From: a virus
Lineage: Duplodnaviria > Heunggongvirae > Uroviricota > Caudoviricetes
Length of the DNA: 18,952 nucleotides
Strand: one strand, 5' to 3'
IMG/VR virus record: IMGVR_UViG_2563366990_000003
Coordinates: 1-18,952 of that record
Shown here: positions 1 through 18,952 of the stretch, piece after piece
Position numbering within the stretch: position 1 is the stretch's first letter
Layout: each line of letters begins with the position of its first letter
The notes under the pieces: model-generated
What the model was told of the DNA's origin: nothing
The model's database searches: none
The model's input: the letters and a program-made list of their open reading frames with translations, nothing else
Program-made: the position numbers and the translations under genes

Positions 1-102
1 CTGGTACCGTTCGCCCTCCGGGGTGCTTATCACGAAGCCGCACGACTCCGCTGGCGCACACCGCCGGGCATGCACCAGAATCGCTGATTCAGTCTGTGTC
101 AT
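1..102 (-). CDS. K: Tail assembly protein K-like, N-terminal 34 codons only; gene continues past the window start
   Basis: ATG at 102 lies 10 nt downstream of the L stop, in the position lambda K occupies. Translation MTQTESAILVHARRCAPAESCGFVISTPEGERYQ contains an ESCGF motif I recall from K-family proteins. Frame is open to position 1. Confidence 0.65.
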   Translation of the reverse strand, partial: MTQTESAILVHARRCAPAESCGFVISTPEGERYQ

Positions 103-112
103 AAAACGGGAT

Positions 113-811: not shown

Positions 812-1140
812 CAGTTCACCACCTGCTTAAACTCCGCGCTGAACTCAACGCGCAACATCCCGACCCGCGCAGACCACCCGGCGCAGGTCACCTTTATCTG
901 CCGGTATGCATAGGGTGGCTTCCACAAAAATGCCTTCCAGCCCCCGTGCTCTGCCAGAAACGCTTCCAGATGCCGGGCCTCCTCCCGGGTCACGGAAAGC
1001 GTCACCCGGTATGTTTTCAGGTCAGCATTCAGCCCTGCCGCCATACGCTGTGAGTACCCGTCACCAAAACGCACTTCACGCACCGACGGCTGCGAGTTCA
1101 CCTCCATATCCGGCTTCACTTTCCAGCGAAAGGTTTTCAT
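811..1140 (-). CDS. M: Minor tail protein M
   Basis: 109-aa ORF, the same length as lambda gpM, with recognisable similarity (MKTFRWKVKPDM...). ATG start overlaps the H stop. Confidence 0.93.
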   Translation of the reverse strand: MKTFRWKVKPDMEVNSQPSVREVRFGDGYSQRMAAGLNADLKTYRVTLSVTREEARHLEAFLAEHGGWKAFLWKPPYAYRQIKVTCAGWSARVGMLRVEFSAEFKQVVN

Positions 1141-3782: not shown

Positions 3783-3825
3783 CGTGGTCACCTCCTGAAA
3801 TGTCCTCTGATGCCATCAATAACTG

Positions 3826-4583
3826 TCACAACCTCCTTCCCTCCTCCCCGAAACGGACTCCACCGGCGAGGCCCGCCGCCTTCTGCATCAGTACATCATT
3901 TTCGTCCGGCGTCTCCGCCTGCCCTTCCTCTGCCTCCGGAGCGAACAGGCTGAAATCCGCCGGATGCATATCCGGATCGCAAAAAAACAGGCTGAGTACG
4001 GCGTACGTCAGCCCGGAAAAATGCATATCCAGCTGGGTATCCTGAAAATAATGCGTGCAGTAAAAACGTCGCCAGTCGGCATATTCGGTGGATGTCATCC
4101 CGGCAAGCATGGCGCGCCAGTCGGCTCTCCCCATCTCACGCGCCAGTTTCAGGACAAAGTTCAGCTCGCCTTCGAATGCTTTTTTGATGTTACCGGCTCA
4201 GTCGCTTCTGCTTTCCCGGTTGGTTCAGGATCGGCATCGTGCCGGTTATCCAGCATACCTGAAAGATAAAGCACCCGGTTCGTTGCCTGATTCAGTGCAT
4301 CAGCAGGCCATCCCAGCATCACTTCACGGCGGATCTGCTGCATCTCTGTCTCCGGAGATGCCAGAGTGCCTTTGAGGGAATGGGAATGCCATAGCGACAT
4401 CGCCACAAGCAGGGATGCCGTTTCCAGATATCGCTGGTTAATGTGCACGGCATCATGCTCCGTTGTCTCCTGTTGTGCTGCGTCTGAAACAAACTTCATA
4501 TAATCAAACCGCTGCAGCGCAGACAGCTCCGACAGCGTGACGGACACCCCGTTATATTCAAATTGTTCTGTTTTCAGGAACAT
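3826..4583 (-). CDS. Tail assembly chaperone G-T fusion, made by a programmed -1 ribosomal frameshift at 4179-4185
   Basis: The -1 frame relative to G is closed by TGA at 4198-4200 and open from 4197 down to a stop at 3826-3828. The only slippery heptamer in the G/T overlap is A_AAA_AAG. Predicted product is G residues 1-135 followed by about 117 T-frame residues. Lambda makes G-T the same way at the equivalent position. Confidence 0.8.
4161..4583 (-). CDS. G: Tail assembly chaperone G (zero-frame product)
   Basis: Internal ATG at 4583 with GGAGGAG RBS. The 140-aa product begins MFLKTEQFEYNGVSVTLSELSALQR, close to the lambda gpG N-terminus and the same length. The ORF-track start at 4697 lacks this support. 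Confidence 0.9.
   Translation of the reverse strand: MFLKTEQFEYNGVSVTLSELSALQRFDYMKFVSDAAQQETTEHDAVHINQRYLETASLLVAMSLWHSHSLKGTLASPETEMQQIRREVMLGWPADALNQATNRVLYLSGMLDNRHDADPEPTGKAEATEPVTSKKHSKAS
4179..4185 (-). promoter_or_regulatory. Slippery heptamer A_AAA_AAG for the G to G-T -1 frameshift
   Basis: Read directly: minus-strand TCA AAA AAG in the G frame, 6 codons before the G stop. It is the only X_XXY_YYZ site inside the window where both frames are open. Confidence 0.75.
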
Positions 4584-4599
4584 GCTTGATCTCCTCCCC

Positions 4600-5349
4600 T
4601 CAGCCCGCAGCGCCATCCGTGACGGTGATCTCCGCCACCGCCGCAAACTCACCGTTGCCGGTGACAACAGGGATCTGCGCTTTACCTGCCGCAACACCTT
4701 TCACGATGATCGTGTTCCCTTTCACGGTAATGGTGGCGAAATTCTGATTCGCTGAGGTTGCGCGGAACGTTTTATCCGTTGCGCCTTCCGGCTGAACGGC
4801 CACGGTCAGGGTGATATTCTGACCTTTTGCCACATTCCCCGTTAGTGGCGTCACGGTAATACCGGTGACCGGTGTGATTTCTCCCCGATCCTCAGCCAGC
4901 GACGGACGACCGATATTGGTGATTTTCACAGTGCGGGTGATCACTTCTTTGGCGGTCACGGATTTACCAATGGCGCTCACCCAGCCACGGAACACATCCA
5001 CCGTGCCGTTCGGGAAGCGGATTTTGTAGGCCCGGGTCTCGCTGCTGTCAAACCAGGCAATCAAATCACGCTGCCCTTTCTCGCCGGGCTTCCAGGCCAG
5101 CGTAAAACTGGTGTCACCGGCAGATTTCTGCCCCTGCCCGGTGGATACCCAGTCAGCATCCTCATCATCCAGATAGTTATCGTCGTAGGATTCCGCCGTC
5201 ATCTCGCCGGGGGTCAGATCCTTTATTTTTGCCAGGCGCGTCCAGTCATCATCTGACAGCGGGTTTGCCCAGGCATCGCCATTTCCGGTATAAACCCAGA
5301 GCGTGGTGCCGGAACCTTTTACCGGCGCAAGGGGATTAGGGAGCGTCAT
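4600..5349 (-). CDS. V: Major tail protein V, with C-terminal Ig-like domain
   Basis: 249-aa ORF with extensive similarity to lambda gpV along its length ([45 protein letters not shown]...[14 protein letters not shown]). ATG start. Confidence 0.95.
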
Positions 5350-5356
5350 AACGTCC

Positions 5357-5755
5357 TCACATCTGGTAAGTAATATTCCACTGGAGATCAGCCGATCCCC
5401 ACATCATATATTCGTCATCCCGGCGATAGTCATACCCCTGAAGATTCATCTTCAGCAGTAATGCACTTAGCCCGGGAACCGCCTCCAGCGCCGGAAGTAT
5501 TTTTTCTTCCATCCACATATCCAGCACGGAGTCCGTCTCTTTCGCCCTGAGAAACACCTCAATATGAAGCACGGCCTCCCAGGTCCCCTCGTCAACAAAC
5601 TCCTCCGTCGCAGAAGCATCTGTCAGATAAACCGCCACCGCAGGCAGTTCCTGTTCATCAATAAATACCGGGCGGCCGTCAAACCAGTTCACCCGCTCAG
5701 AAATATTTTCTTTCAGGGCAGACAGAACTGCCGCCCGTATTTCACGGTGTTTCAT
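5357..5755 (-). CDS. U: Tail terminator protein U
   Basis: 132-aa ORF similar to lambda gpU (MKH.E.RAAVL.AL...GYDYRRDD). Correct position between Z and V. Confidence 0.9.
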
Positions 5756-5767
5756 ACACCCTCCCTG

Positions 5768-6397
5768 TCATTTTCGTTTCAGCACCAGGCGTAACTGATG
5801 CGCCATGGCCGTCATCATCTGCGCCGGTAATTTTTCCCGGTACATCCGGTCCCGTTCACGTTCAAAGGTTTCTGCCAGCGGTCCGGCAGTCGGAATCTTC
5901 ACCACTTCGATCGGCAGACGGTGGCGTTTCGGCCTCCCTTTGCTGTCCGCGCCGCTGGACGATGGTGCCCACGGCATACGCTGCATCACATGCCAGCGTC
6001 CGTTAGCCAGCCGGGTGATAAAGGCGTCCGGGATCCGTCTTTTCCCCACAATCAGCACACTGCCGCCCCCTTTCAGGGCCGCACGCTGTCCTTTCTTTCT
6101 CCGTTTTCTGCGGGAAAGTCGAACGCGGGCCTCCCCCAGTTTGATGGCGGGCAGGTTGCCGGTATTGATGTAAACCTTTGCGTAAACCTTATCCGGTCGT
6201 GCCGGACTTAACCGGATGCGGGCACGGATAAGACGACGGGGAACGGCCAGCTCCCTGGCAACTGAAGAGGCCGTTTTCGCAATAATGGCCCCCGCCACGC
6301 GGTTCAGTGTCGTGGCAGAGGCCCGGGGAACGGCACGGCGGTCAATTGCATCCAGATTTTTCATGGCCTGCGCCAGACCTTTTATTGCCATACTCAT
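5768..6397 (-). CDS. Z: Tail completion protein Z
   Basis: Similarity to lambda gpZ (MAIKGL.QA..NL...RRKRRKKGQR...KGGGSVL.VG.RRIP.AFI..L.NGRWHVMQR). Start could be ATG at 6397 or the second Met at 6391. Confidence 0.9.
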   Translation of the reverse strand: MSMAIKGLAQAMKNLDAIDRRAVPRASATTLNRVAGAIIAKTASSVARELAVPRRLIRARIRLSPARPDKVYAKVYINTGNLPAIKLGEARVRLSRRKRRKKGQRAALKGGGSVLIVGKRRIPDAFITRLANGRWHVMQRMPWAPSSSGADSKGRPKRHRLPIEVVKIPTAGPLAETFERERDRMYREKLPAQMMTAMAHQLRLVLKRK

Positions 6398-6675
6398 TCC
6401 TGTTCGACAAAAATCCGGGGTTTACCGTTGTACGTGTCATAACGGGTCACCGTCAGTGTGCGCCCCGCAAACACAACAACATCATGACGGGCCGGACGGT
6501 ACCGGGCTGAAAACACCACCAGTGACAACTGGCTGCCCGAAAGCGCCCCCATCTCCGCGGACTCTTCCTCCGGCATCACGTCATACACTACGCCGTTAAT
6601 CTCCGCCTGTTTGCCCATCACCCGAACGGTCGCCCCGTCCATCCGGCAACACATTCGCGTAAACAGATCAGACAT
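6394..6675 (-). CDS. Head-tail joining protein, FII-like
   Basis: 93-aa ORF in the position of lambda FII, immediately upstream of Z, with weak by-eye resemblance to gpFII. Start is uncertain: ATG at 6675 overlaps the upstream gene by 8 nt and three further in-frame Met codons follow. Confidence 0.55.
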   Translation of the reverse strand: MSDLFTRMCCRMDGATVRVMGKQAEINGVVYDVMPEEESAEMGALSGSQLSLVVFSARYRPARHDVVVFAGRTLTVTRYDTYNGKPRIFVEQE

Positions 6676-6994
6676 TGATTTTTACCGCCACAGTGGCGCT
6701 GTTTGCAGGAGCATTTTCCCAGGCTACCCCCGCAGCCACCGCACCGTCTGCAGCCAGCTGCACAACCCCGTCCTTCAGATAAACCACCGCGCCGGACTGA
6801 ATATCGTCAGCAGACTGTTTGGGCAGCAGGAACACGCCTTCGGCAAAACCGTCACCGGCATCACCGGCAGGAATATCGGTAATGGCCACTGCCACCATAC
6901 TGCCGACCACCACCGCAGCACCGCTCAGGATGGTCTGATCTCCGGCATTCACCAGTTCAATGGTGGTGCCGTCCTGTACAAAATTTTTCGCCAT
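6668..6994 (-). CDS. Small Ala/Gly/Val-rich head protein (DUF2190-like; possible decoration or cement protein)
   Basis: 108-aa ORF directly downstream of the major capsid gene, with GGAGAAA RBS and ATG at 6994. Composition and position resemble the small head proteins that follow HK97-type capsid genes. The family assignment is from memory and the function is not established. Confidence 0.5.
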   Translation of the reverse strand: MAKNFVQDGTTIELVNAGDQTILSGAAVVVGSMVAVAITDIPAGDAGDGFAEGVFLLPKQSADDIQSGAVVYLKDGVVQLAADGAVAAGVAWENAPANSATVAVKINV

Positions 6995-7010
6995 AATGCT
7001 GTTTCTCCGG

Positions 7011-7060
7011 ACAGCCCCTGTGGGGCTGTTTTTCAGGCATAAAAAAAGCCCTTTCGGGCA
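7011..7060. terminator. Paired stem-loops between the capsid gene and the next head gene
   Basis: Read directly. 7047-7058 forms GCCC-GAAA-GGGC followed by 7 T on the minus (sense) strand, 22 nt after the capsid stop. 7011-7029 forms an 8-bp stem (ACAGCCCC/GGGGCTGT) followed by T5 on the plus strand. Confidence 0.4.
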
Positions 7061-7081
7061 GTGATTGTGATAACGCGGTTA

Positions 7082-9061
7082 TCAGGCCACCGACGAACGC
7101 ACCAGACCGCGCCAGTCAAGTGGTGCCACACCGGCATCAATACGAATTTTTGTGGCAATGCCGTCAGTGGTGAAACCTTCCTGCTGATCAATGTATGGCG
7201 TGTCCACACCATCCAGCCAGGCCACTTCAATGGTGTCAGTGCCCTGTGCCGCCGCCAGATACCAGGTTTTCGGATCTGCCGCATCAAGACGCGCTTCCGC
7301 AATCACCTCAGCAAAGTTCTGGATGGGGTTAATGACACCGGCGTTTGCATCCGCCCCTTTCACACTGGCCGATTTGATGGTCTGGTTCGCCACCGTCTCC
7401 AGTGCCACCGGTACCAGCATAAAGGCCGGACGGATATTCAGGGCGCGCTCGCCTTCTTTCTGCAGGCGCATCATCTGACGGGCCGCATCCAGTCCGGAAA
7501 CGGAGATCCCGCCGGTGGCAATATTTTTGTGATCGGCATGGAACAGCGCCTTACCGTCGGACAGTTTCGGGTTATCCGTCAGCACCTTGTAAACCAGGTC
7601 ACCAATCGTTGCCTTCGCCGCACGCCCCATCTTCATCGGCACGTCCACCAGCATATTCAGATCATCATTGATAATGGCCTGGCGGGTGATGGAGAAAATC
7701 TCCCCGTAGGTGGCCAGAGCAATGGTCTCCTTGCGATCTGAGGTGGTGATGTATTTATACTCCGCCCCCTCACGAACCTGACGCAAAGAACCAAAACCGC
7801 CCATCCCCACGCGATACGCTGTTTTGAAGTCTGACAGGCGTCCCTTACGGGTCCACTTCTGGAAGGTTTCTTCTGATTCCTCCCAGCCCTGGATCAGCCC
7901 CTTGTTCGACACATCCAGCAGGATATTGCCAAAATCAGAGGTGCTGTGCGTAAGCGCCAGCCCGACCATCTGCATGGGGTTATAACTGGCCACCCCAATA
8001 CCGCGCTCCGTCAGTGACATACGAGCCCATTCACGCAGGGTCATCCCGTTATAGGCGTTATCCTTCTCGACATTTTCAAATCCGGCACGGGCCAGCATCG
8101 CCTGGCGGATCCCGTCTCCCACAAAATTGCCGTTTCCGGCATAAATATGGGCCGGTGTGTTTTTGTTGGTCGGCGAGGACTCCTTGCCCATTTCATTCAG
8201 CAGACGTTCACGGGCCATTTCCAGCGAACAGTCAGGATCAGCCACGCACTGTGCCTGAAGCGTCTGATAGCGACCGCCGAACATGGCAAACAGATCGTTA
8301 ATGCCTGACATGCGTGCTTTCTGCTCAGCCATAACGCGGGCGCGAATGGTCGCCTCATCAGACACTGCCGGTACCGGTGATGGTTCTGTTACCGCCGGTG
8401 CAGGGATTGTCACTGTGGTATCACGCGGGGCACTGTTGCGTGGTGGAGTAATCATGTTTCGGATGGATTCCGGCATCTTTTTAAATTCCTCTGTACGTTT
8501 TGACTGAATACATGCCATTGCCTCAACAGCGGGTGTCACCTGGTCAGCAAATCCGTGTGCCAGACATTCGGCACCGGACATCCAGGTTTCATCCGCCAGC
8601 ATGGCGGCAATTTCATCGGTGGTTTTTCCGGTTTTCTGCGCATAGGCTGGCAACAGTACCGATTCGACTTTATCCAGCAAATCAGCATAACTGCGCATAT
8701 CCTCAGCATCCCCGCCACTGAATCCCCATGGCTTATGGATCATCATGAAGGCATTTTCCGGCATAATGACCGTATCACCGGCCATCGCAATCACAGATGC
8801 CATCGAGGCGGCAACGCCATCCACATACACGGTAATGGTCGCCCCCTGATTTTTCAGGGCATTAAAAATGGCGATGCCTTCAAAGACATCGCCACCCGGT
8901 GAGTTGATGTGGAGATTAATGTGGGTGATATCACCCAGAGCATTCAGTTCGCTGACAAACTGCTTCGCGGTAACTCCCCAGAAACCAATCTCGTCATAAA
9001 TATAAATATCCGCGTCACCCGGCCCCCCAGCCTGCATCCTGAACCAGGATTTATTCTTCAT
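7082..9061 (-). CDS. Fused prohead protease (S49/ClpP-like) - scaffold-like linker - HK97-fold major capsid polyprotein
   Basis: About 659 aa from ATG 9061. The N-terminal part has the serine-protease-like region (HINSPGGDVFEGIAIFNAL...MASVIAMAGD). The middle is a charged helical segment. The C-terminal roughly 320 aa looks like an HK97-type capsid protein. The ORF-track GTG at 9253 would overlap the portal by 200 nt, so I prefer 9061, which overlaps the portal stop by 11 nt. Confidence 0.85.
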   Translation of the reverse strand: MKNKSWFRMQAGGPGDADIYIYDEIGFWGVTAKQFVSELNALGDITHINLHINSPGGDVFEGIAIFNALKNQGATITVYVDGVAASMASVIAMAGDTVIMPENAFMMIHKPWGFSGGDAEDMRSYADLLDKVESVLLPAYAQKTGKTTDEIAAMLADETWMSGAECLAHGFADQVTPAVEAMACIQSKRTEEFKKMPESIRNMITPPRNSAPRDTTVTIPAPAVTEPSPVPAVSDEATIRARVMAEQKARMSGINDLFAMFGGRYQTLQAQCVADPDCSLEMARERLLNEMGKESSPTNKNTPAHIYAGNGNFVGDGIRQAMLARAGFENVEKDNAYNGMTLREWARMSLTERGIGVASYNPMQMVGLALTHSTSDFGNILLDVSNKGLIQGWEESEETFQKWTRKGRLSDFKTAYRVGMGGFGSLRQVREGAEYKYITTSDRKETIALATYGEIFSITRQAIINDDLNMLVDVPMKMGRAAKATIGDLVYKVLTDNPKLSDGKALFHADHKNIATGGISVSGLDAARQMMRLQKEGERALNIRPAFMLVPVALETVANQTIKSASVKGADANAGVINPIQNFAEVIAEARLDAADPKTWYLAAAQGTDTIEVAWLDGVDTPYIDQQEGFTTDGIATKIRIDAGVAPLDWRGLVRSSVA

Positions 9062-10553
9062 GCTGGCTTTCGGTGTCACGCTGATACTGTCGTTCAGTTC
9101 CGGCACTGTTGCCTCCTTTGTCGTTGACGGGGTCAGTATCAAAGACCAGCCCCAGTCTGCTGTTTTCATCAATTTCAGCCTTGCGGCGACGTTTGACCTC
9201 ATCCGGATTGCGCCCGCCGGCACGCACCCAGTCAGATTCTGTCGCTGCACCACCCCGGATCTGAATTCTCCAGGCTTCAGCTTCCTTAACCGGGTCGATC
9301 CACGGCATCACCGGACCGGAATACGTCGCGTTATATAGCGTTTTCATCTCCACATCCGCCGGAATTTTCAGCAGACCTGCCGCAACCACCATATTCAGCC
9401 ATGTCCGGTACACCGGGCGGGTTACCGCGCCAATAAAACAGTCCTGCAGGATCAGGTAACCATCCGTGGACTCGACCAGCTCCTGCCGCTGGGCGCTGTA
9501 GGTGCCGTTATAGTTACGCGCCGCACTGGAAAAACTCAGACGACTGCCAGCTGCCACTGCACGCAACTGGCCGTTGCGGAAAGTTTCAAGGTTGGGATTG
9601 GGACGGTCAGATTTGACCATGCCGATATCCTCGCCCTTGCGCAAATCGTCATAAATAATACCCGGGGTGATATGGACTTCCCGCTCGGTTTCTTTGATCC
9701 CCGGATCTTCATAGTCCTGTCCGTCACCTTTACGGATATACAGTCCCAGCGCCGCAGCAATACGCGCCGCTGTCAGTTCCGCATCCTCATACTCTTTAAG
9801 GGCACTGATCCGCATCAGCACCCCCGATAACATGGATGAGCCTCGCGTCTGATGCAGACGACGAGTGAACTTCAGGTGGATCATTTTTCCGGCAGCGATT
9901 TCTTTCGTATCACTCTGCCGGCCGCTGACCGGATAATTTTTATAAACCAGATATTTTTTCGGTCTTCCCCACTCATCAAGAAAAACCCCCTGATTCAGCC
10001 CGGCGGATTCATCAGTGCGCATGGGAACAAAATCCGGCTCCATCGCCTCAAGCCAGAATGGCACTCCCGCCGTCCGTTCCAGACCGTTTCCCGCACCACT
10101 GACCATCTGCGCAAACACTTCACCATCCCGCAGCCAGGTCCGCAGCAGTAAACGTTCAAGCACGGGACGGGTATACTGCCCTGTCACATCCGGACTCACG
10201 GACCATTCAGCCCACAACCGGCGGATATCCGCAGCCAGCTCTGCCACCATTTCCCCGTTTTTTCGTAATGGCTGAGGCTCCACAATAATTCCCCTGGCAC
10301 CAATCACCCGCTCTTCCAGCTTGTCAAACACACCAATCACCAGGTCATGATTGATATCCAGAAAACGGACCTGCTCCCGCAGGGAAACCGCACCGTATTT
10401 ACTGAGCTGATCAGCAGAGCGATTTTCCCGCCGGGCTTTATGTGTCCGGGTCGGTTTCACCGCCTCATAGGCCATGATTAACGCCCTTGAACGCAGTCTG
10501 GCTGCTTTCCATCCGGGGGAAAACACGCCTATCACATCATCAATAATTGCCAT
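9051..10553 (-). CDS. Portal protein
   Basis: 500-aa ORF between the W-like gene and the protease/capsid gene. Size, position and acidic C-terminal tail are typical of lambda-family portals. ATG start overlaps the W-like stop. Confidence 0.88.
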   Translation of the reverse strand: MAIIDDVIGVFSPGWKAARLRSRALIMAYEAVKPTRTHKARRENRSADQLSKYGAVSLREQVRFLDINHDLVIGVFDKLEERVIGARGIIVEPQPLRKNGEMVAELAADIRRLWAEWSVSPDVTGQYTRPVLERLLLRTWLRDGEVFAQMVSGAGNGLERTAGVPFWLEAMEPDFVPMRTDESAGLNQGVFLDEWGRPKKYLVYKNYPVSGRQSDTKEIAAGKMIHLKFTRRLHQTRGSSMLSGVLMRISALKEYEDAELTAARIAAALGLYIRKGDGQDYEDPGIKETEREVHITPGIIYDDLRKGEDIGMVKSDRPNPNLETFRNGQLRAVAAGSRLSFSSAARNYNGTYSAQRQELVESTDGYLILQDCFIGAVTRPVYRTWLNMVVAAGLLKIPADVEMKTLYNATYSGPVMPWIDPVKEAEAWRIQIRGGAATESDWVRAGGRNPDEVKRRRKAEIDENSRLGLVFDTDPVNDKGGNSAGTERQYQRDTESQHEE

Positions 10554-10789
10554 TAAAACCTCGCCAGTTTAAATCCCGGTTTTCCCCGCCTGCGGCTCAC
10601 CATCGCGGCAAGCCTGCGTTCCCACTCCTGACGTCCGGCGCGGATCTGAGAAAGGCTTTCCAGCGTCAGTTGCTGCCCGTTGAAGGTGACAGACTTCCCC
10701 TCCAGTACGGCCATTTCCGCTTCACGGTACCGCTGTATCATTTCTCTGGCTTCTTCTGTGCTCACAACCAGCCTCCTGATGTTATCCAT
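10553..10789 (-). CDS. Head-tail joining protein, gpW-like
   Basis: 78-aa ORF between terminase large subunit and portal, the lambda W position. The C-terminus (RRRGKPGF) resembles the lambda gpW C-terminus (RRRGPAGF). ATG at 10789 confirmed. Confidence 0.7.
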   Translation of the reverse strand: MDNIRRLVVSTEEAREMIQRYREAEMAVLEGKSVTFNGQQLTLESLSQIRAGRQEWERRLAAMVSRRRGKPGFKLARF

Positions 10790-12885
10790 GGATTATCTTC
10801 CGCACGCTCCGTCCGCAGTTTTTTCTTCCGGCGACGGCGTTTTTCTGCCCCGGCCGTCAGTTCCGGGGATACCGTTTCACCAGAACGCGCCTGCGGGAAG
10901 ACGAGCCACGTTTCCCGCTGTGCCCAGTCCGGTGCGGAGGGCCAGCGGATCTTTTCATAACCATGCAGAACAGCAAGCGCATCCGCATAAACCAGCAGGT
11001 CAAACGCCTCGTTAGCGCCCCTGCCCGGTTTTCGCCATTTTCCGTCACTGCCGCGCTCTTCATAGGTCAGCTCATCGTAAAACCACCGCCCCAGCCAGTC
11101 GGGAAAGTGGATATAGTTCGGCCCTGGTGTGTCACGCCACAGGGCATTATTTACACGGTCCTTAAACGCATCCGTCTGAACCAGCCACAGCGCGACATCG
11201 CCACTGGCTCTGGCACGGCGGGCACTTCTGCCGGTATTATCCGGGAAGGTACGGTTAATCAGCCTGTCACGGCGAAGACCATCCCCCTTGAACAGAAACA
11301 CCCTGTTGCCCAGTCCGTCACTCCGGCAACGACGCCAGAAACGATAGGCGTTATCTGTCACCCCGGCTTCCCCTCCCGTATCCACCGCCATGGCCATCAG
11401 ACGCATGCGCACATCCGGATCAGAAGCCAGCGGCCATGTTTTATGGAACACATCCGTCAGCAACAAATCCCAGTCCTCCGGATATGCCGCCGGATCAACC
11501 GGCAGACTTTCACCGTTGGGACTGCATCGCAGTGAATGCCGGATGTTGTAGCGATCAACAATCCAGCGTTCCCCCTGCTCTCCGTATCCGGTGATCTGCA
11601 CAACAAAACGGCGATTTTTACCGCCCTGTACGTCAACCGTTGCCTCAATAAAACGCACACCATCCGGCACAGATCGCCGGGGAAACGGCTCGGCACGCTG
11701 TTCAAGCAGTTCACTTTTACGCTGTTCCGTGGCTGAACGGGGCAGATAGGGTCGTCCGATATCGGTGTTCACCACCGCTTTCAGGGTCTCTTCACTGCCG
11801 GTTCGCTCATACTCTTCTTCTGCCGCCAGCAGCTTAAAAATCAGTTGTTCCCAGGTCTGAAACGCCGCAGCCGGCCCCTCCATCCAGAAACTTGCTATTC
11901 TGGAATTTCGGGGGGTTCCGGTGATACTGCCATCCGCCGCTGCCCGTTCGCCTTCCCGCAGCCAGATCCCCTGGTTATTCAGTTCACGCTTCTGTTCCGG
12001 AGCAATCAGGCCGCGGCAGTGCGGACACATCAGGCGGGCCGCCTGCCCGGCAGCCACAAAATCAGGGTTATTCCGGTAACCGGTCATGTTATCCATCACC
12101 GGCTGAAAATATTCCCCGCAGTGCGGACACGGCCAGTACCACCGGCGGCGGTCTCCCCGGTTATACAGTGACAGGATCCCCGTTGTTGGCGGTGCCTCAT
12201 GTGCGCCACCACAACGCCATTTGGTATCGGTGATATCCCGCCCGGGCGAACTTTCGACCAGGGTCATCCCCGAGGACATAAAGGTGGTGGTACGCTTTGA
12301 GGCCAGGGTGAAGGCATCCCCTTCCCCGTCCACGTTTTCAGGGAAACGGTCATAATCCGTCAGCGCCACACGACGGTAATCCGAGGAGGAAAATACGGTG
12401 ATCGACGGCCAGCCAATTTTCAGGAATGAGCCGTCAAGAAACATTTTATCGTGGACGTTGTTGTCATTACGGGAAGGGCTGAGGCGTTTGCAGACCTCCG
12501 GGCTGTGGCGAAACGTCCTGGAAAGACGCGTTCTGGAATGCTCACGCGCCTTCGTCTCGGTCATCTGCACCACCAGCATGTCAGCCGGATCACAGATGAT
12601 GCCGTACACAATCCAGCCATCAATCAGCCCTTCGGTTTTCCCGGTTCGCGCCGGTCCGACAAACACCACCGCGTCATATTCACGGGCTGATAATGTATTA
12701 ATGGGGTCTATCATATAGGGCGTCAGCGATGACTCCCACGGACCGGAAGTATTGGCTCCCCGTGGTACCCGCATATAACGCCTGATGGCTTCCGCTACTG
12801 GTAACCGGCCAGGTGGGCGAAACAGCGAGGCCACTTCGCGCCAGATATCGGATGCGCGGCTATGGCTCTCGTTCACCTGATTCAC
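10762..12885 (-). CDS. Terminase large subunit (lambda gpA family)
   Basis: 707-aa ORF with a Walker A-like motif (VGPARTGKT), Cys-rich segments (CPHCGEYF, CPHCRG) and a basic C-terminal tail. The start is a GTG at 12885 that overlaps the small-subunit stop; no in-frame ATG is nearby. The exact start is uncertain. Confidence 0.88.
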   Translation of the reverse strand: MNQVNESHSRASDIWREVASLFRPPGRLPVAEAIRRYMRVPRGANTSGPWESSLTPYMIDPINTLSAREYDAVVFVGPARTGKTEGLIDGWIVYGIICDPADMLVVQMTETKAREHSRTRLSRTFRHSPEVCKRLSPSRNDNNVHDKMFLDGSFLKIGWPSITVFSSSDYRRVALTDYDRFPENVDGEGDAFTLASKRTTTFMSSGMTLVESSPGRDITDTKWRCGGAHEAPPTTGILSLYNRGDRRRWYWPCPHCGEYFQPVMDNMTGYRNNPDFVAAGQAARLMCPHCRGLIAPEQKRELNNQGIWLREGERAAADGSITGTPRNSRIASFWMEGPAAAFQTWEQLIFKLLAAEEEYERTGSEETLKAVVNTDIGRPYLPRSATEQRKSELLEQRAEPFPRRSVPDGVRFIEATVDVQGGKNRRFVVQITGYGEQGERWIVDRYNIRHSLRCSPNGESLPVDPAAYPEDWDLLLTDVFHKTWPLASDPDVRMRLMAMAVDTGGEAGVTDNAYRFWRRCRSDGLGNRVFLFKGDGLRRDRLINRTFPDNTGRSARRARASGDVALWLVQTDAFKDRVNNALWRDTPGPNYIHFPDWLGRWFYDELTYEERGSDGKWRKPGRGANEAFDLLVYADALAVLHGYEKIRWPSAPDWAQRETWLVFPQARSGETVSPELTAGAEKRRRRKKKLRTERAEDNPWITSGGWL

Positions 12886-13358
12886 ATATCGGCCTCATCA
12901 CAACAGTCAATGACTGCCTTTTCCAGTGTGTCGCGGATCTCATCAACCACAATCTGTACTTCATTCAGTTGTGATGCGGTCCACCCCCTGTCCCTCTCCA
13001 GCCGGTCAGGCCAGGTTTCCAGTACCTGAACTATCGCTTTCACCACGACAGAAAACGACCGCCTGACATCACTGACAGGCACGAGCAGACCGGTTTCCTG
13101 CTCAAATTTCAGTCGGTCACGTTCTGACTGGTACCATGCTTTACGCGCATGAGGATCCATTTCCTCGTTATCTACAGGCAGAGGAGCTTTCATCAGTTCG
13201 GCAAGGATATCTGTCAGTCGGTACAGTTTGAGATTGCTCTCATGACCACCGGCTGGGCTTATGTTTTTTACCCGAGCCGCGACAGTCTGTCGATGAGCAC
13301 CGGATAATGCGGCCAGTTGGGAAATATTCAGATGCAGATTTTTTAATTCACGATCCAT
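12882..13358 (-). CDS. Terminase small subunit (Nu1-like)
   Basis: 158-aa ORF with an N-terminal HTH-like segment (ISQLAALSGAHRQTVAARV), a strong GGGGGAG RBS, and a position directly upstream of the large subunit and about 150 bp downstream of the cos-like site. Confidence 0.78.
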   Translation of the reverse strand: MDRELKNLHLNISQLAALSGAHRQTVAARVKNISPAGGHESNLKLYRLTDILAELMKAPLPVDNEEMDPHARKAWYQSERDRLKFEQETGLLVPVSDVRRSFSVVVKAIVQVLETWPDRLERDRGWTASQLNEVQIVVDEIRDTLEKAVIDCCDEADM

Positions 13359-13499
13359 AACTCCCCCTGAAAATTATGTAAATACACGCCAGTGATGAAC
13401 AAAAAACAACCAAATTCGACACTAAAAATTTTTATTTTTCTATATATCAATGACTTACACTGGTGGTGATGGTGCCATAAAAATCAAAAAATGCGCCTT

Positions 13500-13525
13500 T
13501 TTCCGCGCCGCCCGCCCCGTGTTCA
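13500..13525 (-). other. Putative cos site (cosN-like GC-rich core) with cosB-like AT-rich spacer down to the terminase start
   Basis: The minus strand reads ACGGGGCGGGCGGCGCGGAAAAAGGCGCATTTTTTGATTTTTATGG. This resembles the lambda cohesive-end region (GGGCGGCGACCT followed by a T-rich tract) and sits at a lambda-like distance upstream of the Nu1-like start. Exact nick positions cannot be read from sequence. Confidence 0.45.
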
Positions 13526-13777
13526 GGCCCACCCCACCAGGAGGACCCGCAAAATGATAATGGTTATCATTTGTAATGTAGTCCGGTTTCTTCCACCATC
13601 GCACCGGACCAGCGACCATGAGGGGACAACGCCGCGCTCCGTTAACGCGGTAAACCCCGGTGTGTATCGTTTTTGATTATCCCCGCACACTCGCGCAGAG
13701 GAGTCTCCCTGTCGGGCTGCGGTCTCTGTTAATACGGGAATACGGCGACAATACCGCGCCATGGATAATAAGGTCGC

Positions 13778-14002
13778 TCAACACACTGGCTGTAATGCAG
13801 CCGATACCATGCGGCATTTAGCGGCATTCATCGTACACTCAACGGTTAGCTCTTCATTCGTGGCATTCACCTGAAAGGTCCGGGAGTATAATTGCGTACA
13901 TTTACCACTGAACGAACCTTCAACAAGAACACGACCACGCTGCAAAATACGGAACGGAATTGTTCCCTGAAAAGGCTTTACGGTTACCAGTAATTTCTTC
14001 AT
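13778..14002 (-). CDS. Hypothetical 74-aa protein with four cysteines, between Rz and cos
   Basis: The ORF-track start is a TTG at 14020. An in-frame ATG at 14002 has a GGAGAA RBS and begins MKKLLVTVKPFQG. The region looks lower in GC than its flanks. No family recognised. Confidence 0.5.
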   Translation of the reverse strand: MKKLLVTVKPFQGTIPFRILQRGRVLVEGSFSGKCTQLYSRTFQVNATNEELTVECTMNAAKCRMVSAALQPVC

Positions 14003-14025
14003 GCATTCTCCGGATAACAAAAATA

Positions 14026-14493
14026 CTAGTTAATACACTGAGTGCGGATATATTCCTGCGCCCCTTCCAGCTGCTTCTGCATTGTCATCAACCGTTCTCT
14101 GAGGATGAAATAATCCCGTTCAGCGGTGTCTGCCAGTCGGGGGCCGGTTGCATTATCCACGCCGGAGGTGCCGGTGGCTTCACGCACGGTACCGTGGCAG
14201 GTGGCGTTGATCCGCAGGCGCTTACGACCAGCGGCAACATCAGCACGCAGAGTTTCATTTTCAGCTCTCGCATCGGCTAATTCCCTCGAGTATTTTGCAT
14301 CGAGCGCAGCAACATCGCGCTGGCGCACCTGCATATCAGTAATGGTGGCATTCGCCTGTTCCAGCTCTCTGGCTTTTTTATCGCGCTGCGCTTTGTAGGT
14401 GATGGCGTTATCGCGGTAATGATTCAGCCCCAGACTAAGCGCACCACAGGCCACCAGCAAGGCAATGATGACCACACACAGAACGCGGTTCAT
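14026..14493 (-). CDS. Rz: Rz i-spanin
   Basis: 155-aa ORF with an N-terminal TM segment ([18 protein letters not shown]) and a charged coiled-coil-like periplasmic part. Position downstream of the endolysin and the embedded Rz1 frame support the call. Confidence 0.85.
14088..14273 (-). CDS. Rz1: Rz1 o-spanin (lipoprotein), embedded in the +1 frame of Rz
   Basis: 61-aa ORF with a lipobox (LVVSAC) and a Pro-rich mature part ([27 protein letters not shown]) closely resembling lambda Rz1. ATG at 14273 confirmed. Confidence 0.82.
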
Positions 14494-14494
14494 T

Positions 14495-14593
14495 TCACCA
14501 CCAGCGTATCTGACCGATGAAATAACCGGAGGCCATAATCACAAACACCAGCCAGATAAGGATGAACTTCCAGGTGGATAATTTTTCAGCCAT
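14495..14593 (-). CDS. 32-aa single-pass membrane peptide ORF, not in the ORF track
   Basis: Read directly: GGGAGA RBS, 8-nt spacer, then ATG at 14593. Translation is [32 protein letters not shown]. Its TGA stop is separated from the Rz ATG by one nucleotide. Confidence 0.4.
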
Positions 14594-14668
14594 CACTCGA
14601 ATCTCCCGAATCAGTTTGCTAAAATTAAACACACTTTCTCCTTTGACTTTTCCGGAGTCAGGAAACAC

Positions 14669-14702
14669 AAAACCCCGCTTGCTACCAACAAACGGGGTTT
14701 TT
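14669..14702. terminator. Bidirectional intrinsic-terminator-like hairpin between the endolysin and the small ORF/Rz
   Basis: Read directly: 9-bp stem AAAACCCCG/CGGGGTTTT with a 15-nt loop, flanked by T-rich tracts on both strands. Confidence 0.4.
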
Positions 14703-14791
14703 ACTTTTATTCACTTAGGTTTTGCCAGTTCGCAGGATTTCGTGTTATCCGTCCGCGTTGGCCAACGTCATTTTTCAGCAAAATATTCTGC

Positions 14792-15325
14792 TTATCTGTC
14801 GATTCCCCAGCACGCCAGCGCGCTCTCCTGGTCACGACGGGATATCTGGCCGTAACAGTTGTTTGAGCGGATACGGCAGTCTCTGCCACCGTCCTTAATC
14901 CACCAGCGAATCGCTTCACACGCTCCCCTGCGATCGCCTGCATTAATTCGTTTATAAAACGTCGACGGGAAACACTTACCGGGGCCAATGTTATACGGGC
15001 AGAATGACGCAATACCCGCTTTCTGGGGTTCGGTCAGTGGCACTCTGATGTTTTTCTCCACCCATGCCAGCGCCTTATCCCGTTCGATAGCGTTAACCCG
15101 GTCGCATTTTTCCTTCGACAGCTTCATGCCAGGAATCACAGGCTTACCATCCACCATGATGGCACCCCGGCAGATGGTCCAGATACCCGCACCATCACGG
15201 TATGCCGTGGTGTGGTTGCCTTCCTTTTCATCCAGAAACTGGTCGAGGATTTCAGGCGCAGAAGCCCCTGCGGCAATCAGCGCCAGAACGGCAGCTGACA
15301 GGCCGTATTTGATTTTTGCGTTCAT
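14792..15325 (-). CDS. R: SAR endolysin (phage lysozyme, GH24 / T4-lysozyme fold)
   Basis: 177-aa ORF. The N-terminus has a weakly hydrophobic Gly/Ala-rich SAR-like segment (YGLSAAVLALIAAGASAPE). The catalytic E-x8-D-x5-T triad is present (EGNHTTAYRDGAGIWT). It matches my recollection of the R lysozyme of Shiga-toxin-type lambdoid phages. ATG at 15325. Confidence 0.9.
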   Translation of the reverse strand: MNAKIKYGLSAAVLALIAAGASAPEILDQFLDEKEGNHTTAYRDGAGIWTICRGAIMVDGKPVIPGMKLSKEKCDRVNAIERDKALAWVEKNIRVPLTEPQKAGIASFCPYNIGPGKCFPSTFYKRINAGDRRGACEAIRWWIKDGGRDCRIRSNNCYGQISRRDQESALACWGIDR

Positions 15326-15352
15326 GGATATTTATCAGGATTTATAGCTCTC

Positions 15353-15403
15353 TTATTCCTGGATATGTCAGATATATAATCCGGTACTCACGATGAATAT
15401 AAT
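15353..15403 (+). promoter_or_regulatory. Candidate sigma70 promoter(s) for the plus-strand 106-aa ORF
   Basis: Read directly: TATAAT hexamers at 15375-15380 and 15398-15403 in a very AT-rich intergenic region 50-75 bp upstream of the ATG at 15451. The -35 elements are poor (TTATTC). Confidence 0.3.
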
Positions 15404-15450
15404 CAACAGGCACCAGGACACACCCGGTAACAACAAATGAGATTTTATAA

Positions 15451-15771
15451 ATGAATAATAATGACAACAATTTACGCAAAGAGTTTTTGCAGATAATGAA
15501 CGAAAATGTTAAATCAGAATTAAAAGCGCTTATCCCGGATAATAGCGAAACCACTCAGGCCATTCTCTCAGAGCCTTACGGCATGCTTTCAACAGAAACA
15601 CTGGATATCATTATCACCACATTAACACCATTGATGCTTCAGCATCTGAAGCACAACATTAACAAATGGTTTAATGACGAACTCAGTCACCCGGGTTGTT
15701 CATGGGATAAAAACTTTGCCTGTCTGCAAAAAAAACGGCTCTTCAATAAACTATCGCTTAAGTTCAGATAA
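15451..15771 (+). CDS. Hypothetical 106-aa protein, plus strand, convergent with and overlapping the 3' end of the 385-aa gene
   Basis: It is the only plausible plus-strand gene in the window. It is AT-rich, Asn/Lys/Leu-rich and predicted helical. ATG at 15451, weak RBS. No family recognised. Confidence 0.5.
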   Translation: MNNNDNNLRKEFLQIMNENVKSELKALIPDNSETTQAILSEPYGMLSTETLDIIITTLTPLMLQHLKHNINKWFNDELSHPGCSWDKNFACLQKKRLFNKLSLKFR

Positions 15772-16921
15772 CCGCCCCAAACCGCCCTTTCAGATAAGTC
15801 AGCCCCGGCTGGATCCAATCATCTGGCTCAGTCTTAAAGGGTGGAGTATTGAAATCACGAAGAACGGTCTCCCGCACAACTGCATCCTTATCAGCACCAC
15901 TGACCAGCGCTTCAATCTCAGCGGCTACCTGCAGATACCCCATGCAACGACCAATGCGCTTCATTAGTCCCTGCTTTTTATTGTTCTTCAGGTAATCAAT
16001 GGCAAATTCAATGAGCGTCTCACAGTGCTGGTGCGATGGCGGTGTTACTTTTCCATTTTCTGAGATAGTTATTTTCCCGTCATCACCGGATACAACAAAG
16101 GATGGCCGGTTACACTCCCATTCCTGGTCACTGAAATCTACCTTCAGAAAGAACGGCCCGATTTTTGTAAAGGAACCTTTGGCATCGTTCCCCTCATGAC
16201 GGAATACACCGACTCCGGCGGTAACGAGTTCACCGGTTATCGTATTTGTGTCTATTTCGATGCTTACGGGAATGGAACAGAGGATACCTGGACTTCTCTC
16301 AACATCATGTTTGATGGCCTCATGAAAGCCACCAAAAGAATGAGCAATGAAACAATCACTGGCGAGATGCGTCCCCTTTAAAAAATTATCCAGAATCTCA
16401 CTATTTGCAGAGCGCTCTCTGTTTTTTTGAATACGGAAACACTCTGCGAGATTTCTGCTCATCACTTTCCGGCAATAATCGTAAAACGCCGCGAACTGCT
16501 CATCACGGCGTTTTTTTTCACCTTCGGAAGGGATCTGCACCGACAGTTTTTTATTCAGTTCAACGACGCTGTTCTCCAGTTTTTCAATGCGTGATTCGAT
16601 ATCATCTTTTTCTGACTGTATCGTGTTATATGCATTGTTAATTTGTATGGTATACCGCTCTTCTGAACAGAGGCGCTTTTCCCGTGACTGTTCATCCCCT
16701 TCACATAAAGCGGCAGCAATATCCATGAAAAACTGCTTCGCCTTCTTTTTCGCCTCAGCTTCGTAAAATTCCAGCGTGGCACCTTCAGTACGGTCAAGAC
16801 TAATCGCCACATATGGCGACAACAACGACGGCTGCCCGGCAATTTCCAGTGCCACAGTAACAGTAATCTTATCCGGGTAATTATTTATCCCTTTAACAAC
16901 CAGTTCGTATTGTTTATTCAT
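15764..16921 (-). CDS. Hypothetical 385-aa protein inserted between holin and endolysin; function unknown
   Basis: ATG at 16921 lies 3 nt after the holin stop, with GGGGAGAG as RBS. The ORF is long and uninterrupted in AT-rich DNA. Architecture by eye: N-terminal domain, a central charged heptad-like segment (about aa 85-170) and a C-terminal Cys/His-containing domain. No signal peptide or TM segment. No family recognised. Confidence 0.8.
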   Translation of the reverse strand: MNKQYELVVKGINNYPDKITVTVALEIAGQPSLLSPYVAISLDRTEGATLEFYEAEAKKKAKQFFMDIAAALCEGDEQSREKRLCSEERYTIQINNAYNTIQSEKDDIESRIEKLENSVVELNKKLSVQIPSEGEKKRRDEQFAAFYDYCRKVMSRNLAECFRIQKNRERSANSEILDNFLKGTHLASDCFIAHSFGGFHEAIKHDVERSPGILCSIPVSIEIDTNTITGELVTAGVGVFRHEGNDAKGSFTKIGPFFLKVDFSDQEWECNRPSFVVSGDDGKITISENGKVTPPSHQHCETLIEFAIDYLKNNKKQGLMKRIGRCMGYLQVAAEIEALVSGADKDAVVRETVLRDFNTPPFKTEPDDWIQPGLTYLKGRFGAVI

Positions 16922-16924
16922 CGT

Positions 16925-17140
16925 CTACTCTCCCCGTGCCGCCTTGCGCCGGTCCTCTTTAATTTTGAAATACAGGTTTGTCAGGTACGTCAGCAACCCA
17001 AACAGCAGACTCCCCAGCACACCTATTGCCGCCCACTGAGACGGGGAAACCCTGTCCAGCAACTGCAGGAACCAGTAGCCCGTTCCCACCGCTGACGTGG
17101 TGTATGACACACCTGTTGTGATTTTTTCCATCTGGTACAT
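16925..17140 (-). CDS. S: Class II holin of the phage 21 S21 pinholin family, with dual-start motif
   Basis: 71-aa product [71 protein letters not shown], near-colinear with S21 as I recall it. It has two TM segments and Met1/Met4 starts (antiholin/holin). GGAG RBS. The ORF-track start at 17194 is a GTG further upstream. Confidence 0.9.
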
Positions 17141-17216
17141 ACCCCGTCTCCCGCAATCCGGAAGCTCACAACAATATAAAGACCACCGGCACACACCGAT
17201 GGTCCCTTGCGCATGC

Positions 17217-17462
17217 TTACATCATCATGTCGCTGTCAGGTGTGGGTTCACCGCCATCTGAAGCACTCCCGTCACCCGCAATGCCTTCCGGCTCCGGAAC
17301 TGCCGGTGCGCCCAGCAGTTCATCCAGAATGGCATCCACTTCTGCATCAAGACGCGACTCAAGGTTCTGGCGGAGTTTCTGTTTCAGTGCGCTCAGGACT
17401 TCTTCAGAGCGCAGGACTTCCTTCACTGCTTCAGCAGTGACCAGGGATGTGATTTCTGACAT
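17217..17462 (-). CDS. Hypothetical acidic 81-aa protein upstream of the holin
   Basis: ATG at 17462, following the 60-aa ORF stop by 26 nt. Product [51 protein letters not shown]... is helical and acidic with non-random composition. The RBS is weak. Confidence 0.5.
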
Positions 17463-17487
17463 GGGATTTTCTCGCTGAAAGGGGTTG

Positions 17488-17670
17488 TTAAGGAGTAACG
17501 GGCTCTTCGGGTTTGCTTCCGGCTGACTGACTGGCGCTGATTTTCTCAGCGGCCCTTTTATCAATCTGCCTGCGCCAGAAATCGCGCACGGCCCTGTACC
17601 CACCCGAAAGAAGATACAGCACACAGACCGCCGTACAGAAGTACAGCATCACCTGATGAATAAATGTCAT
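17488..17670 (-). CDS. Hypothetical 60-aa small membrane protein
   Basis: ATG at 17670. One predicted TM segment (VMLYFCTAVCVLYLLSGGY) followed by a basic/polar tail. Same strand and operon context as the lysis genes. Confidence 0.45.
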   Translation of the reverse strand: MTFIHQVMLYFCTAVCVLYLLSGGYRAVRDFWRRQIDKRAAEKISASQSAGSKPEEPVTP

Positions 17671-17770
17671 AATTTCTTACCGTTATGGTTGACTAAGTAA
17701 ACAGTTTTCATTTAAAAATGCCGATGACGAAAGTGGTAGTATCTTTCCTTGATTCTCCATGAATCTCACA

Positions 17771-17806
17771 CCGCCAGAGGTCTCAGGCAACTGGCGGCTT
17801 TTTTTA
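17771..17806 (+). terminator. Plus-strand intrinsic-terminator-like hairpin, abutting the stop of the large minus-strand ORF
   Basis: Read directly: 7-bp GC-rich stem CCGCCAG/CTGGCGG with a 13-nt loop, followed by C plus T7 on the plus strand only. The minus strand has no U-tract after the stem. Confidence 0.4.
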
Positions 17807-18952
17807 TCATGCCGCGGCATCCGCGTTGTTCACTTCCACCTTCACACTGTCAATCAGCAGCGTATATGTCGCCGCCTTTGATATGCCTGTCAGTTGCAGT
17901 TTGTCCGCCGCCCCTGATGCCGGAGATTTCACCAGTGTGAACGGTGTACCCCGTTTCTCATCCAGTACCGGCGTCACCTGAATGCTGTTGTTTCCGGCAA
18001 ACTCAAAAGCCAGTGTGTGCCATCCGTTATCAAAGACCCCGAACGTATCCAGCTTCGCATTCTGCTTCTTGTGGTACATCGCGTTCAGGTTCGTCGCATC
18101 CGTCTGCAGGAAGAAGGACATCAGCATGTCGTTGCCTTCCTCTGACAGCGTCACTCCCTCCGGCAGGGACGACAACTGCCAGTAAATACCCAGGGCAAAC
18201 TGATTCGGCACCAGTGCGCCCGGCACCTTAAACCGCACGCTCACACGTCCGCCTTTCTTCAGCAACTCTGCCCCCTGCCCGGCGGCATCATGCTCCAGAA
18301 ACCAGATGTGGCTTTCCGGTTTGTTCAGTTGCAGGGCCTTACCACCGGTGGCACCCTCATCACTGACCACGGCCTCAGCGATGTTTTTATCAACACTGTC
18401 TCCGCTCGCCGGTTTGTGATAATAGCGCCAGCCCTGTGATGCCAGGTCTTCACCGGACGCCAGCAGACTCATCAGGGTTCGGTTACTGACCGGGGCTTCC
18501 GGCTCTCTCTCCGGGCCTTCACCGGAAGGTCCGGTGGGCTTCACCGTATCAGGCTGTTTTCCGGTAATGAATTCAGCGGTTCTCCCGGCATGCACCAGAA
18601 TCGCCGTTGCCAGACGGTCGGAAATAATCCCACGGCGAGCCCATGAACTGAAATGGCTGGCCCTGTCCACAGATGTCCAGGTCTTCTGGTCATTACGCCA
18701 CTTTGAACCGTAATAACCGACGGCTTCCAGGTCCGGGTCTTCTGCCGGGTCATTGGTCTGCACATTCGCACCATTCTCATCCGTCATTAACGGTACAAAG
18801 AAAATGTTCTGCGACTCCTTACCCTTATACCCTCCGTATACTGATGCATACCCTTCCGCATGACGCTGCTTCCAGAAATACGTTGTGTCCCCGCAAACCC
18901 ACGGTACCGCTGATGCGCTGCCTCCTGTGCTCTGTGATGCCTGACCGGCAAG
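17807..18952 (-). CDS. C-terminal 381 codons of a larger late-operon protein truncated at the window edge; possibly NanS-p-like
   Basis: The frame is open from 18952 down to TGA at 17807-17809; the ORF track shows only the part from the first in-frame ATG at 18787. Large ORFs in this position upstream of the holin in Shiga-toxin-type prophages are NanS-p-like sialate O-acetylesterases as I recall. I cannot confirm this by sequence recognition. Confidence 0.6.
   Translation of the reverse strand, partial: LAGQASQSTGGSASAVPWVCGDTTYFWKQRHAEGYASVYGGYKGKESQNIFFVPLMTDENGANVQTNDPAEDPDLEAVGYYGSKWRNDQKTWTSVDRASHFSSWARRGIISDRLATAILVHAGRTAEFITGKQPDTVKPTGPSGEGPEREPEAPVSNRTLMSLLASGEDLASQGWRYYHKPASGDSVDKNIAEAVVSDEGATGGKALQLNKPESHIWFLEHDAAGQGAELLKKGGRVSVRFKVPGALVPNQFALGIYWQLSSLPEGVTLSEEGNDMLMSFFLQTDATNLNAMYHKKQNAKLDTFGVFDNGWHTLAFEFAGNNSIQVTPVLDEKRGTPFTLVKSPASGAADKLQLTGISKAATYTLLIDSVKVEVNNADAAA

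Follow-up and report, generated by a model that had tools for sequence, protein, structure and literature searches.

In phage lambda, the non-essential interval between the spanin gene Rz and the cohesive-end site cos carries Bor, a lipoprotein that is encoded on the strand opposite to the late genes, has a promoter of its own and is produced in lysogens. For the most part, phage-encoded Tai defence genes are situated upstream of the packaging module (He et al. 2024, PMC11364771). In phage phi80, this slot is occupied by taiEcA (orf63), which lies on the opposite strand and is expressed in the lysogen, and by atiEcA (orf64), which lies on the late strand, is transcribed in a Q-dependent manner without an identified promoter of its own and encodes a product that neutralises Tai during lytic growth; members of the AtiEcA family have been identified by PSI-BLAST (PMC11364771). 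Here, we investigated a 74-amino-acid open reading frame (ORF), hereafter gene A (positions 13778–14002, minus strand, stop codon included), located between Rz and cos in an 18,952-nucleotide stretch of a Caudoviricetes genome (IMG/VR record IMGVR_UViG_2563366990_000003, positions 1 to 18,952; “the window”), where the surrounding minus strand is the lambdoid late operon of an Escherichia coli lambda-like prophage. Gene A is almost certainly a real accessory gene and is best described as an uncharacterised moron-like cargo gene in the spanin-to-cos hotspot of lambdoid phages, for whose product we tentatively propose a neutralising or counter-defence role.

By analogy, AtiEcA of phi80 would be the closest functional and positional counterpart of gene A, without being homologous to it. 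The phi80 record shows a 76-amino-acid late-strand gene beside a 204-amino-acid opposite-strand gene, which we took as orf64 and orf63, respectively. Both AtiEcA and gene A are small (76 versus 74 amino acids), belong to the late strand, share the slot that separates Rz from the packaging genes and represent non-essential cargo, and the late transcription of atiEcA is driven by Q, as is probably also the case for gene A. In contrast to gene A, atiEcA sits beside its cognate opposite-strand defence gene, taiEcA. Candidates for an adjacent Tai-like defence gene, i.e., minus-strand ORFs next to gene A at three distant loci (L005, L007 and L012), proved to be antisense shadows of Rz or lysozyme genes, leaving no such neighbour.

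With lambda Bor and other morons, gene A shares the non-essential Rz-to-cos interval, its discrete insertion and an atypical base composition. Whereas Bor is an opposite-strand lipoprotein, gene A lies on the late strand, has no detectable promoter or terminator and encodes a protein that lacks a signal peptide and lipobox. No lipoprotein-like ORF is present in the ORF list on the plus strand of the Rz-to-cos interval, no opposite-strand gene was found within 13359–14025, and lambda Bor, p78 and p79 gave no tblastn match in the window at E ≤ 10. The initial annotation, made from the sequence of the window before any database search, had likewise seen no lipoprotein gene and nothing Bor-like on the plus strand of this interval.

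Translation of 13778–14002 on the minus strand gives 74 codons followed by a stop codon, encoding MKKLLVTVKPFQGTIPFRILQRGRVLVEGSFSGKCTQLYSRTFQVNATNEELTVECTMNAAKCRMVSAALQPVC. The ATG (14002–14000) is preceded at 5 nt by the Shine-Dalgarno sequence GGAG (14008–14011, minus strand, read from the sequence), and a related locus with Nu1 and gpA terminase genes (L114) has AGGAG at the equivalent position. The frame of gene A is open further in the 5′ direction, up to a TTG at 14020; all homologues begin with MKK. A gap of 23 nt separates the Rz stop codon from the ATG of gene A. The guanine-plus-cytosine (GC) content of gene A is 45.8%, with 44% at third codon positions (GC3), compared with 55.3% and 59.6% in Rz, 54.7% and 60.7% in the lysozyme gene and 57.7% and 61.0% in the large terminase gene TerL. 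The translation together with the GGAG motif therefore substantiates the initial description of a same-strand ORF with a good ribosome-binding site, and the impression of a lower GC content than that of the flanks (45.8% versus about 55%) was also correct.

Gene A truly codes for a protein. Among about 5.8 billion proteins searched, 66 clusters matched, which come without exception from E. coli or Salmonella and most of which are exactly 74 amino acids long and 57–99% identical; length variants among the close relatives differ by whole codons, such as a 5-codon deletion in the 69-amino-acid forms. An exhaustive search of 1.8 billion cluster representatives with a family hidden Markov model (HMM) gave 49 matches. 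Many of the distant ones are stand-alone proteins of 72–82 amino acids with 27–42% identity (from Cedecea, Klebsiella, Citrobacter and Salmonella where the source is named), and the distant homologues share the pattern MKKLxVT...F.V.Q.G+vLveD..SGK...Y.+.Y.V.a...l.vEh. Among 89 loci there are 27 distinct coding sequences, 9 of which encode an identical protein, and in eight lineages the median ratio of nonsynonymous to synonymous substitution rates (dN/dS, Nei-Gojobori) is 0.33 (range 0.18–0.51), with 0.27 for residues 1–55 versus 0.48 for the more variable residues 56–74. Since dN/dS is about 0.33 and synonymous variants encode one and the same protein, gene A is under purifying selection. A reading frame not conserved in relatives had been named beforehand as the outcome that would speak against the gene; instead, the frame is conserved across hundreds of loci. 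Of 5426 complete E. coli genomes, 1139 contain gene A in a form detectable with megablast, and a single genome may have as many as five copies; the feature under the match is annotated as “hypothetical protein”. Strain 155, for instance, contains a 98.7% identical locus with a 74-amino-acid hypothetical protein (WP_000735655.1) at the same position.

Together with its ribosome-binding site, gene A forms a low-GC cargo cassette of 267 bp (13760–14026) that phages either have or lack as a whole. The cassette is missing from phages 1720a-02 and Stx2_499, in which the small terminase and cos region (window 13300/13455–13759) is 95–97% identical and the Rz side (window 14027 onward) is 97–98% identical, and the spacing between these conserved blocks is 12 nt, against 267 nt in the window. 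Because it is missing from otherwise near-identical phage genomes, gene A is accessory and not part of the lysis or packaging machinery. This comparison of presence and absence across related phages, which the initial annotation had proposed, firmly supports the view of gene A as dispensable, mobile cargo. Both its discrete insertion between otherwise adjacent genes and its base composition unlike that of the flanks are characteristic of a moron.

The contexts in which gene A is found are diverse. It follows Rz with three unrelated terminase types, namely a DUF1441 small subunit with a gpA-like large subunit (window, L001 and L208), Nu1 with gpA (L113–L115) and Terminase_2 with an HNH gene (L002, L003, L206 and L207). 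In more distant phages, it is located after lysozyme, CHAP or GH19 endolysins, and the spanin-position genes beside it may or may not have a Pfam match. Homologues also occur between Q and the holin gene (L030 and L031), between tail genes I and J of phage SaltyDalty, and after the tail tube gene and a DUF6246 gene (L032).

In 21 of 28 distant viral loci, a second small gene, B, lies directly downstream of A, within tens of bases. B encodes 68–73 amino acids, belongs to PHROG 4280 and has the motif GWVxGWxVV..PWHLVGVY...YGSHRLGSDDF; it has no significant Pfam match, with only sub-threshold similarity to DUF7457 (E 0.0017) and to the DamX SPOR domain (E 0.12). The pair corresponds to gp60/gp61 of phage mEp237, with B at L118 2501–2722. 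In a Salmonella locus (L113), A is 68% identical to the window protein and B (3765–3971) is followed by a strong terminator, while two further loci (L114 and L115) have an intact A beside a 5′-truncated B and a terminator. When B was used as the query (loci including L124–L203), A was found directly upstream and on the same strand in 77 of the 79 B loci having upstream sequence. B occurs in none of the 86 close-clade loci, the window included, and no remnant of it was detected downstream of the ORF in the window; compared with L113, about 940 bp are lacking after A in the window, after which homology resumes. The cassettes of mEp237 and L113 resemble the window in the family of A (68% identity in Salmonella, ~30–40% in more distant members) and in their position past the spanin gene and before the terminase genes. 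Unlike the window, which has A only, both have kept B, and L113 has also kept the terminator. A leads a mobile A-B-terminator cassette that is found in several late-operon slots and of which the window keeps A only, and the dependence between the two genes is one-sided: B hardly ever occurs without A, but A is often alone.

Two further loci show other arrangements. Pseudomonas phage YMC11/02/R656 (L119 2189–2707) encodes a 39% identical B homologue on the opposite strand inside a tail gene cluster, where it is preceded by an unrelated 83-amino-acid gene instead of A; B can therefore pair with another upstream partner, a typical moron arrangement. Beside the A+B cassette of L032 (4358–5001, minus strand) lie two opposite-strand ORFs, one of 77 amino acids that looks like an Arc-type ribbon-helix-helix protein and one of 135 amino acids, which may form a toxin-antitoxin or defence pair.

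The product of gene A is predicted to be an all-beta sandwich domain of ~8 kDa. AlphaFold2 with the family alignment gave a model of six strands and one short helix, with a mean predicted local distance difference test score (pLDDT) of 90.3. The maximum 19-residue hydropathy of 0.76 is too low for a transmembrane segment, and neither a signal peptide nor a lipobox was found in the 74-amino-acid protein, in which residues 2–8 form a strand inside the predicted fold. The protein is therefore probably cytoplasmic, as it has neither a signal peptide nor a transmembrane segment. Structural matches of the model are weak and to generic beta-sandwiches, such as CBM35 and CBM6 modules as well as lectins. 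Foldseek against PDB and BFVD gave nothing better than E 0.07, and a profile sequence search of PDB gave only sub-threshold matches (a hydrolase at E 0.87 and an alpha-crystallin domain at E 0.18). The initial annotation had recognised no family, which holds true as far as characterised families are concerned; however, the protein is a member of PHROG 2571 (E 6.3e-29, 102 bits, residues 1–73 aligned to profile positions 100–172 of 291) and is listed in RefSeq under the accession given above. A literature search on this protein and on phrases for the Rz-cos interval found nothing on the 74-amino-acid protein.

The initial annotation had also drawn attention to four cysteines. These are present (residues 35, 56, 63 and 74), but they are incidental. 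Within the E. coli/Salmonella clade only, C35 is invariant and C56 nearly so, whereas C63 and C74 are confined to a subclade; many members of the clade have a CxxC (GKCTEC), which the window copy does not. Since the positions in question hold T, A, V or S in the wider family, where only G33 is invariant, cysteines are not a defining feature of the protein. A metal-binding or disulphide motif was considered and dropped, as the residues are not conserved.

The PHROG 2571 profile extends over 291 positions since some of its members are long. A beta domain with 36% identity is part of a protein of phages PhiR46_1 and YDC107_1. In PhiR46_1, this protein (XSB42772.1, L004 3201–4061) is 286 amino acids long, is located between Rz and Nu1 and matches PHROG 2571 at E 6.7e-164. 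It is comparable to the 74-amino-acid protein in that its residues 101–153 are 36% identical to residues 2–54 of the latter, that both lie in the same Rz-to-Nu1 interval and that both match the same PHROG. The long form differs in having an additional N-terminal helical region of ~100 amino acids and a C-terminal domain of ~100 amino acids, whereas the window protein consists of the beta domain only and has a start codon and ribosome-binding site of its own. In the 286-amino-acid form, the N-terminus is coiled-coil-like, the beta domain is at ~100–170, and the C-terminal domain contains Walker-A-like (KPRSGMT) and Walker-B-like (VVIIDDVE) strings and has no Pfam match. Two other proteins combine the beta domain with different partners, i.e., with a tail similar to the C-terminus of phi80 orf66 (P0073) and with a segment resembling, by eye, residues 85–165 of a 385-amino-acid ORF of the window (P0068, 181 amino acids). 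The latter likeness points to domain shuffling among late-operon cargo proteins.

A simple and rather crude consensus scan detected neither a sigma-70-like promoter on the minus strand within 13200–15500 nor a terminator between gene A and the small terminase gene. In related A+B cassettes, the same type of scan showed a terminator after B and no promoter match upstream. Because no promoter or terminator of its own was found, gene A is probably made only late, as the tail end of the Q-dependent transcript that also covers the lysis genes. At two loci, the Stx2a phage Stx2_EH1846 (L206 1010–1725) and E. coli CP001846 (L207 2010–2725), Rz is 164 amino acids long and its stop codon overlaps the start of A as ATGA, which suggests translational coupling between Rz and A there.

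We propose, with low confidence (a probability of roughly 0.35), that the product of gene A is a late-expressed protein-binding neutraliser or counter-defence factor. It would be made late from the Q-dependent transcript and act as a protein-binding module that neutralises or modulates another protein. Its target would be the partner B where this is present and, where A is alone, a defence protein of the host or of a rival element; it would thus work in a way similar to AtiEcA of phi80, although it falls outside the AtiEcA family. We favour this reading because of the small size of the protein, its compact beta fold and its fusion to variable partner domains, because of the one-sided architecture of the A+B cassette and the more variable C-terminal third, and because gene A resides in a slot known for defence and counter-defence genes.

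Several results weigh against this proposal. Homology to AtiEcA was rejected, as alignment of the A family with AtiEcA in hhalign gave a probability of 0.3% (E 0.21); when the HMM of the A family was run against the phi80 proteins, only noise came back, and AtiEcA was absent even at E ≤ 100. Neither TaiEcA nor other proteins of the phi80 slot have a tblastn match in the window at E ≤ 1. The 74-amino-acid protein matches no family in Pfam or NCBIfam and none of the PADLOC defence models at E ≤ 1. The suggested protein-binding role is deduced from size, fold, genetic architecture and position, and the promoter scan used a simple consensus, so that gene A may also be expressed in the lysogen.

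A doubtful alternative, which overlaps with the neutraliser or counter-defence reading, is that A represents the orphan antidote of a decayed effector/antidote (toxin-antitoxin-like) module, in which B would be the active or toxic component and A its upstream neutraliser, B having been lost in this clade. Such an A may still give protection from rivals that carry B, or it may be in the course of being lost. The asymmetric dependence is as expected for this type of module, with A upstream at 77 of the 79 B loci and often solo, and so are the succession of two small adjacent same-strand genes and a terminator and the intact A that L114 and L115 have retained by their truncated B. Against this, purifying selection still acts on solo A (dN/dS ~0.3), of which over 1100 complete genomes have an intact copy. 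A toxin-antitoxin pair also requires constitutive expression, for which no promoter was detected, and A does not have a DNA-binding antitoxin fold. The window does not qualify as encoding a type II toxin-antitoxin pair either, as it has no B and as no toxin or antitoxin model in Pfam, NCBIfam or PADLOC matches A or B.

It is unlikely that gene A is a lysis-cassette accessory that is co-translated with Rz and tunes the function of the spanin, endolysin or holin or the timing of lysis. Its place directly after Rz, with the 23-nt gap here and the ATGA overlap in L206 and L207, would fit such a role, as would the persistence of this place across different packaging modules. However, the predicted soluble protein has no transmembrane segment, signal peptide or lipobox, and no match to a lysis-category Pfam or PHROG family was found in a test for holins, antiholins and spanins. 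Moreover, A accompanies unrelated endolysins and spanins and also occurs outside lysis cassettes (between tail genes I and J and after the tail tube gene), and phages with a 97–98% identical Rz lack it.

Quite improbable is a lysogenic-conversion or released factor that phage lysis sets free and that acts extracellularly, perhaps as a lectin-like beta-sandwich, following the logic of Stx release or of Bor. While gene A is a low-GC occupant of a moron slot, its weak structural matches include lectins and carbohydrate-binding modules and, among the matches listed, the E. coli are mostly Shiga-toxin-type and other prophage-rich strains, it has no secretion signal or promoter of its own, the fold matches are generic and the cysteines that could form extracellular disulfides are not conserved. 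A virion-associated or packaging accessory, such as a decoration protein, assembly factor or cos-recognition helper, is very improbable, since A is independent of the terminase type and absent from near-identical phages with the same cos and terminase. Finally, although the ORF is short, without a Pfam family and unannotated in many phage records, a non-coding spacer that is open by chance is effectively refuted by the conservation of the frame down to 27% identity, together with the whole-codon indels, dN/dS of ~0.3, the conserved ribosome-binding site and the confident fold prediction.

In the late operon of the window, all genes of which are on the minus strand, a class II holin-like ORF (~16925–17140) comes first, followed by the above-mentioned 385-amino-acid ORF with a DUF1327 N-terminus (15764–16921), the lysozyme gene (PF00959), a 57-amino-acid ORF without a Pfam family (14495–14668, PHROG 6632) and the i-spanin gene Rz (14026–14493; PF03245, E 2.9e-50; phrog_13), which lies directly upstream of gene A and has the o-spanin gene Rz1 embedded in it (14088–14273; PF06085, E 6.4e-22). 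The 57-amino-acid ORF has a hydrophobic, transmembrane-like stretch and a stop codon that overlaps the start of Rz, and may be an unrecognised lysis accessory. Just 5′ of it is a hairpin (14701–14669) with a 15-pair stem-loop and no T-run. From the lysozyme gene to the 385-amino-acid ORF, a low-GC stretch of ~430 bp (15330–15760; 0.34–0.47 in overlapping profile windows) contains only short ORFs on either strand.

On its other side, gene A is separated from the small terminase gene by ~420 bp that are free of genes and contain a lambda-type cos site, with the terminase genes beyond it; the initial placement of gene A as the last late-strand gene before cos was thus right. The first gene past cos encodes a small terminase subunit of the DUF1441 type (12882–13358, minus strand; PF07278, E 1.7e-48; phrog_141), and the gpA-like large terminase comes next. 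Window 13570–13542 is 89.7% identical to lambda 48451–48479, and the alignment places a cosQ-like GGGTCCT at 13542–13548 (minus strand), where phi80 has cosQ annotated at the equivalent place. A 12-nt cohesive end (cosN), GGGCGGGCGGCG, is predicted at 13506–13517 (minus strand) from the register of the alignment with lambda and phi80 (GGGCGGCGACCT).

The cos-side border of the cargo slot is a conserved non-coding block (13583–13759) that is 81% identical to lambda 46885–46981. In PhiR46_1, this block is doubled and found on both sides of the cargo (L004 2968–3143 and 4751–4969). It has no RNA-structure signal (folding z = −0.21) and no Rfam match at E ≤ 1, and no structured RNA or Rfam family was found in the interval. 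The block is probably a recombination joint for cargo exchange.

Although gene A was already listed in databases as a conserved hypothetical gene, the precise borders of its cassette, the A+B cassette with its one-sided dependence and the mobility between late-operon slots are new. Gene A is a very common and little-studied occupant of the spanin-to-cos slot, including that of Shiga-toxin-converting phages and other E. coli prophages. A broader proposal, which on balance we regard as rather doubtful, is that A and B constitute a previously unrecognised mobile family of late-expressed counter-defence or neutraliser proteins that hop between slots (following Q, following the spanin gene and within the tail gene region), and that solo A, in about one-fifth of the complete E. 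coli genomes, is an orphan antidote by which the prophage evades a defence or B-like effector that rival prophages or satellites carry. If gene A has no such role, it is one more conserved hypothetical cargo gene. The one-sided dependence of B on A offers a simple and directly testable genetic hypothesis. If the counter-defence or neutraliser reading is true, it would add a new family to the inventory of the phage arms race and would help to account for the coexistence of several lambdoid prophages in a single E. coli genome.

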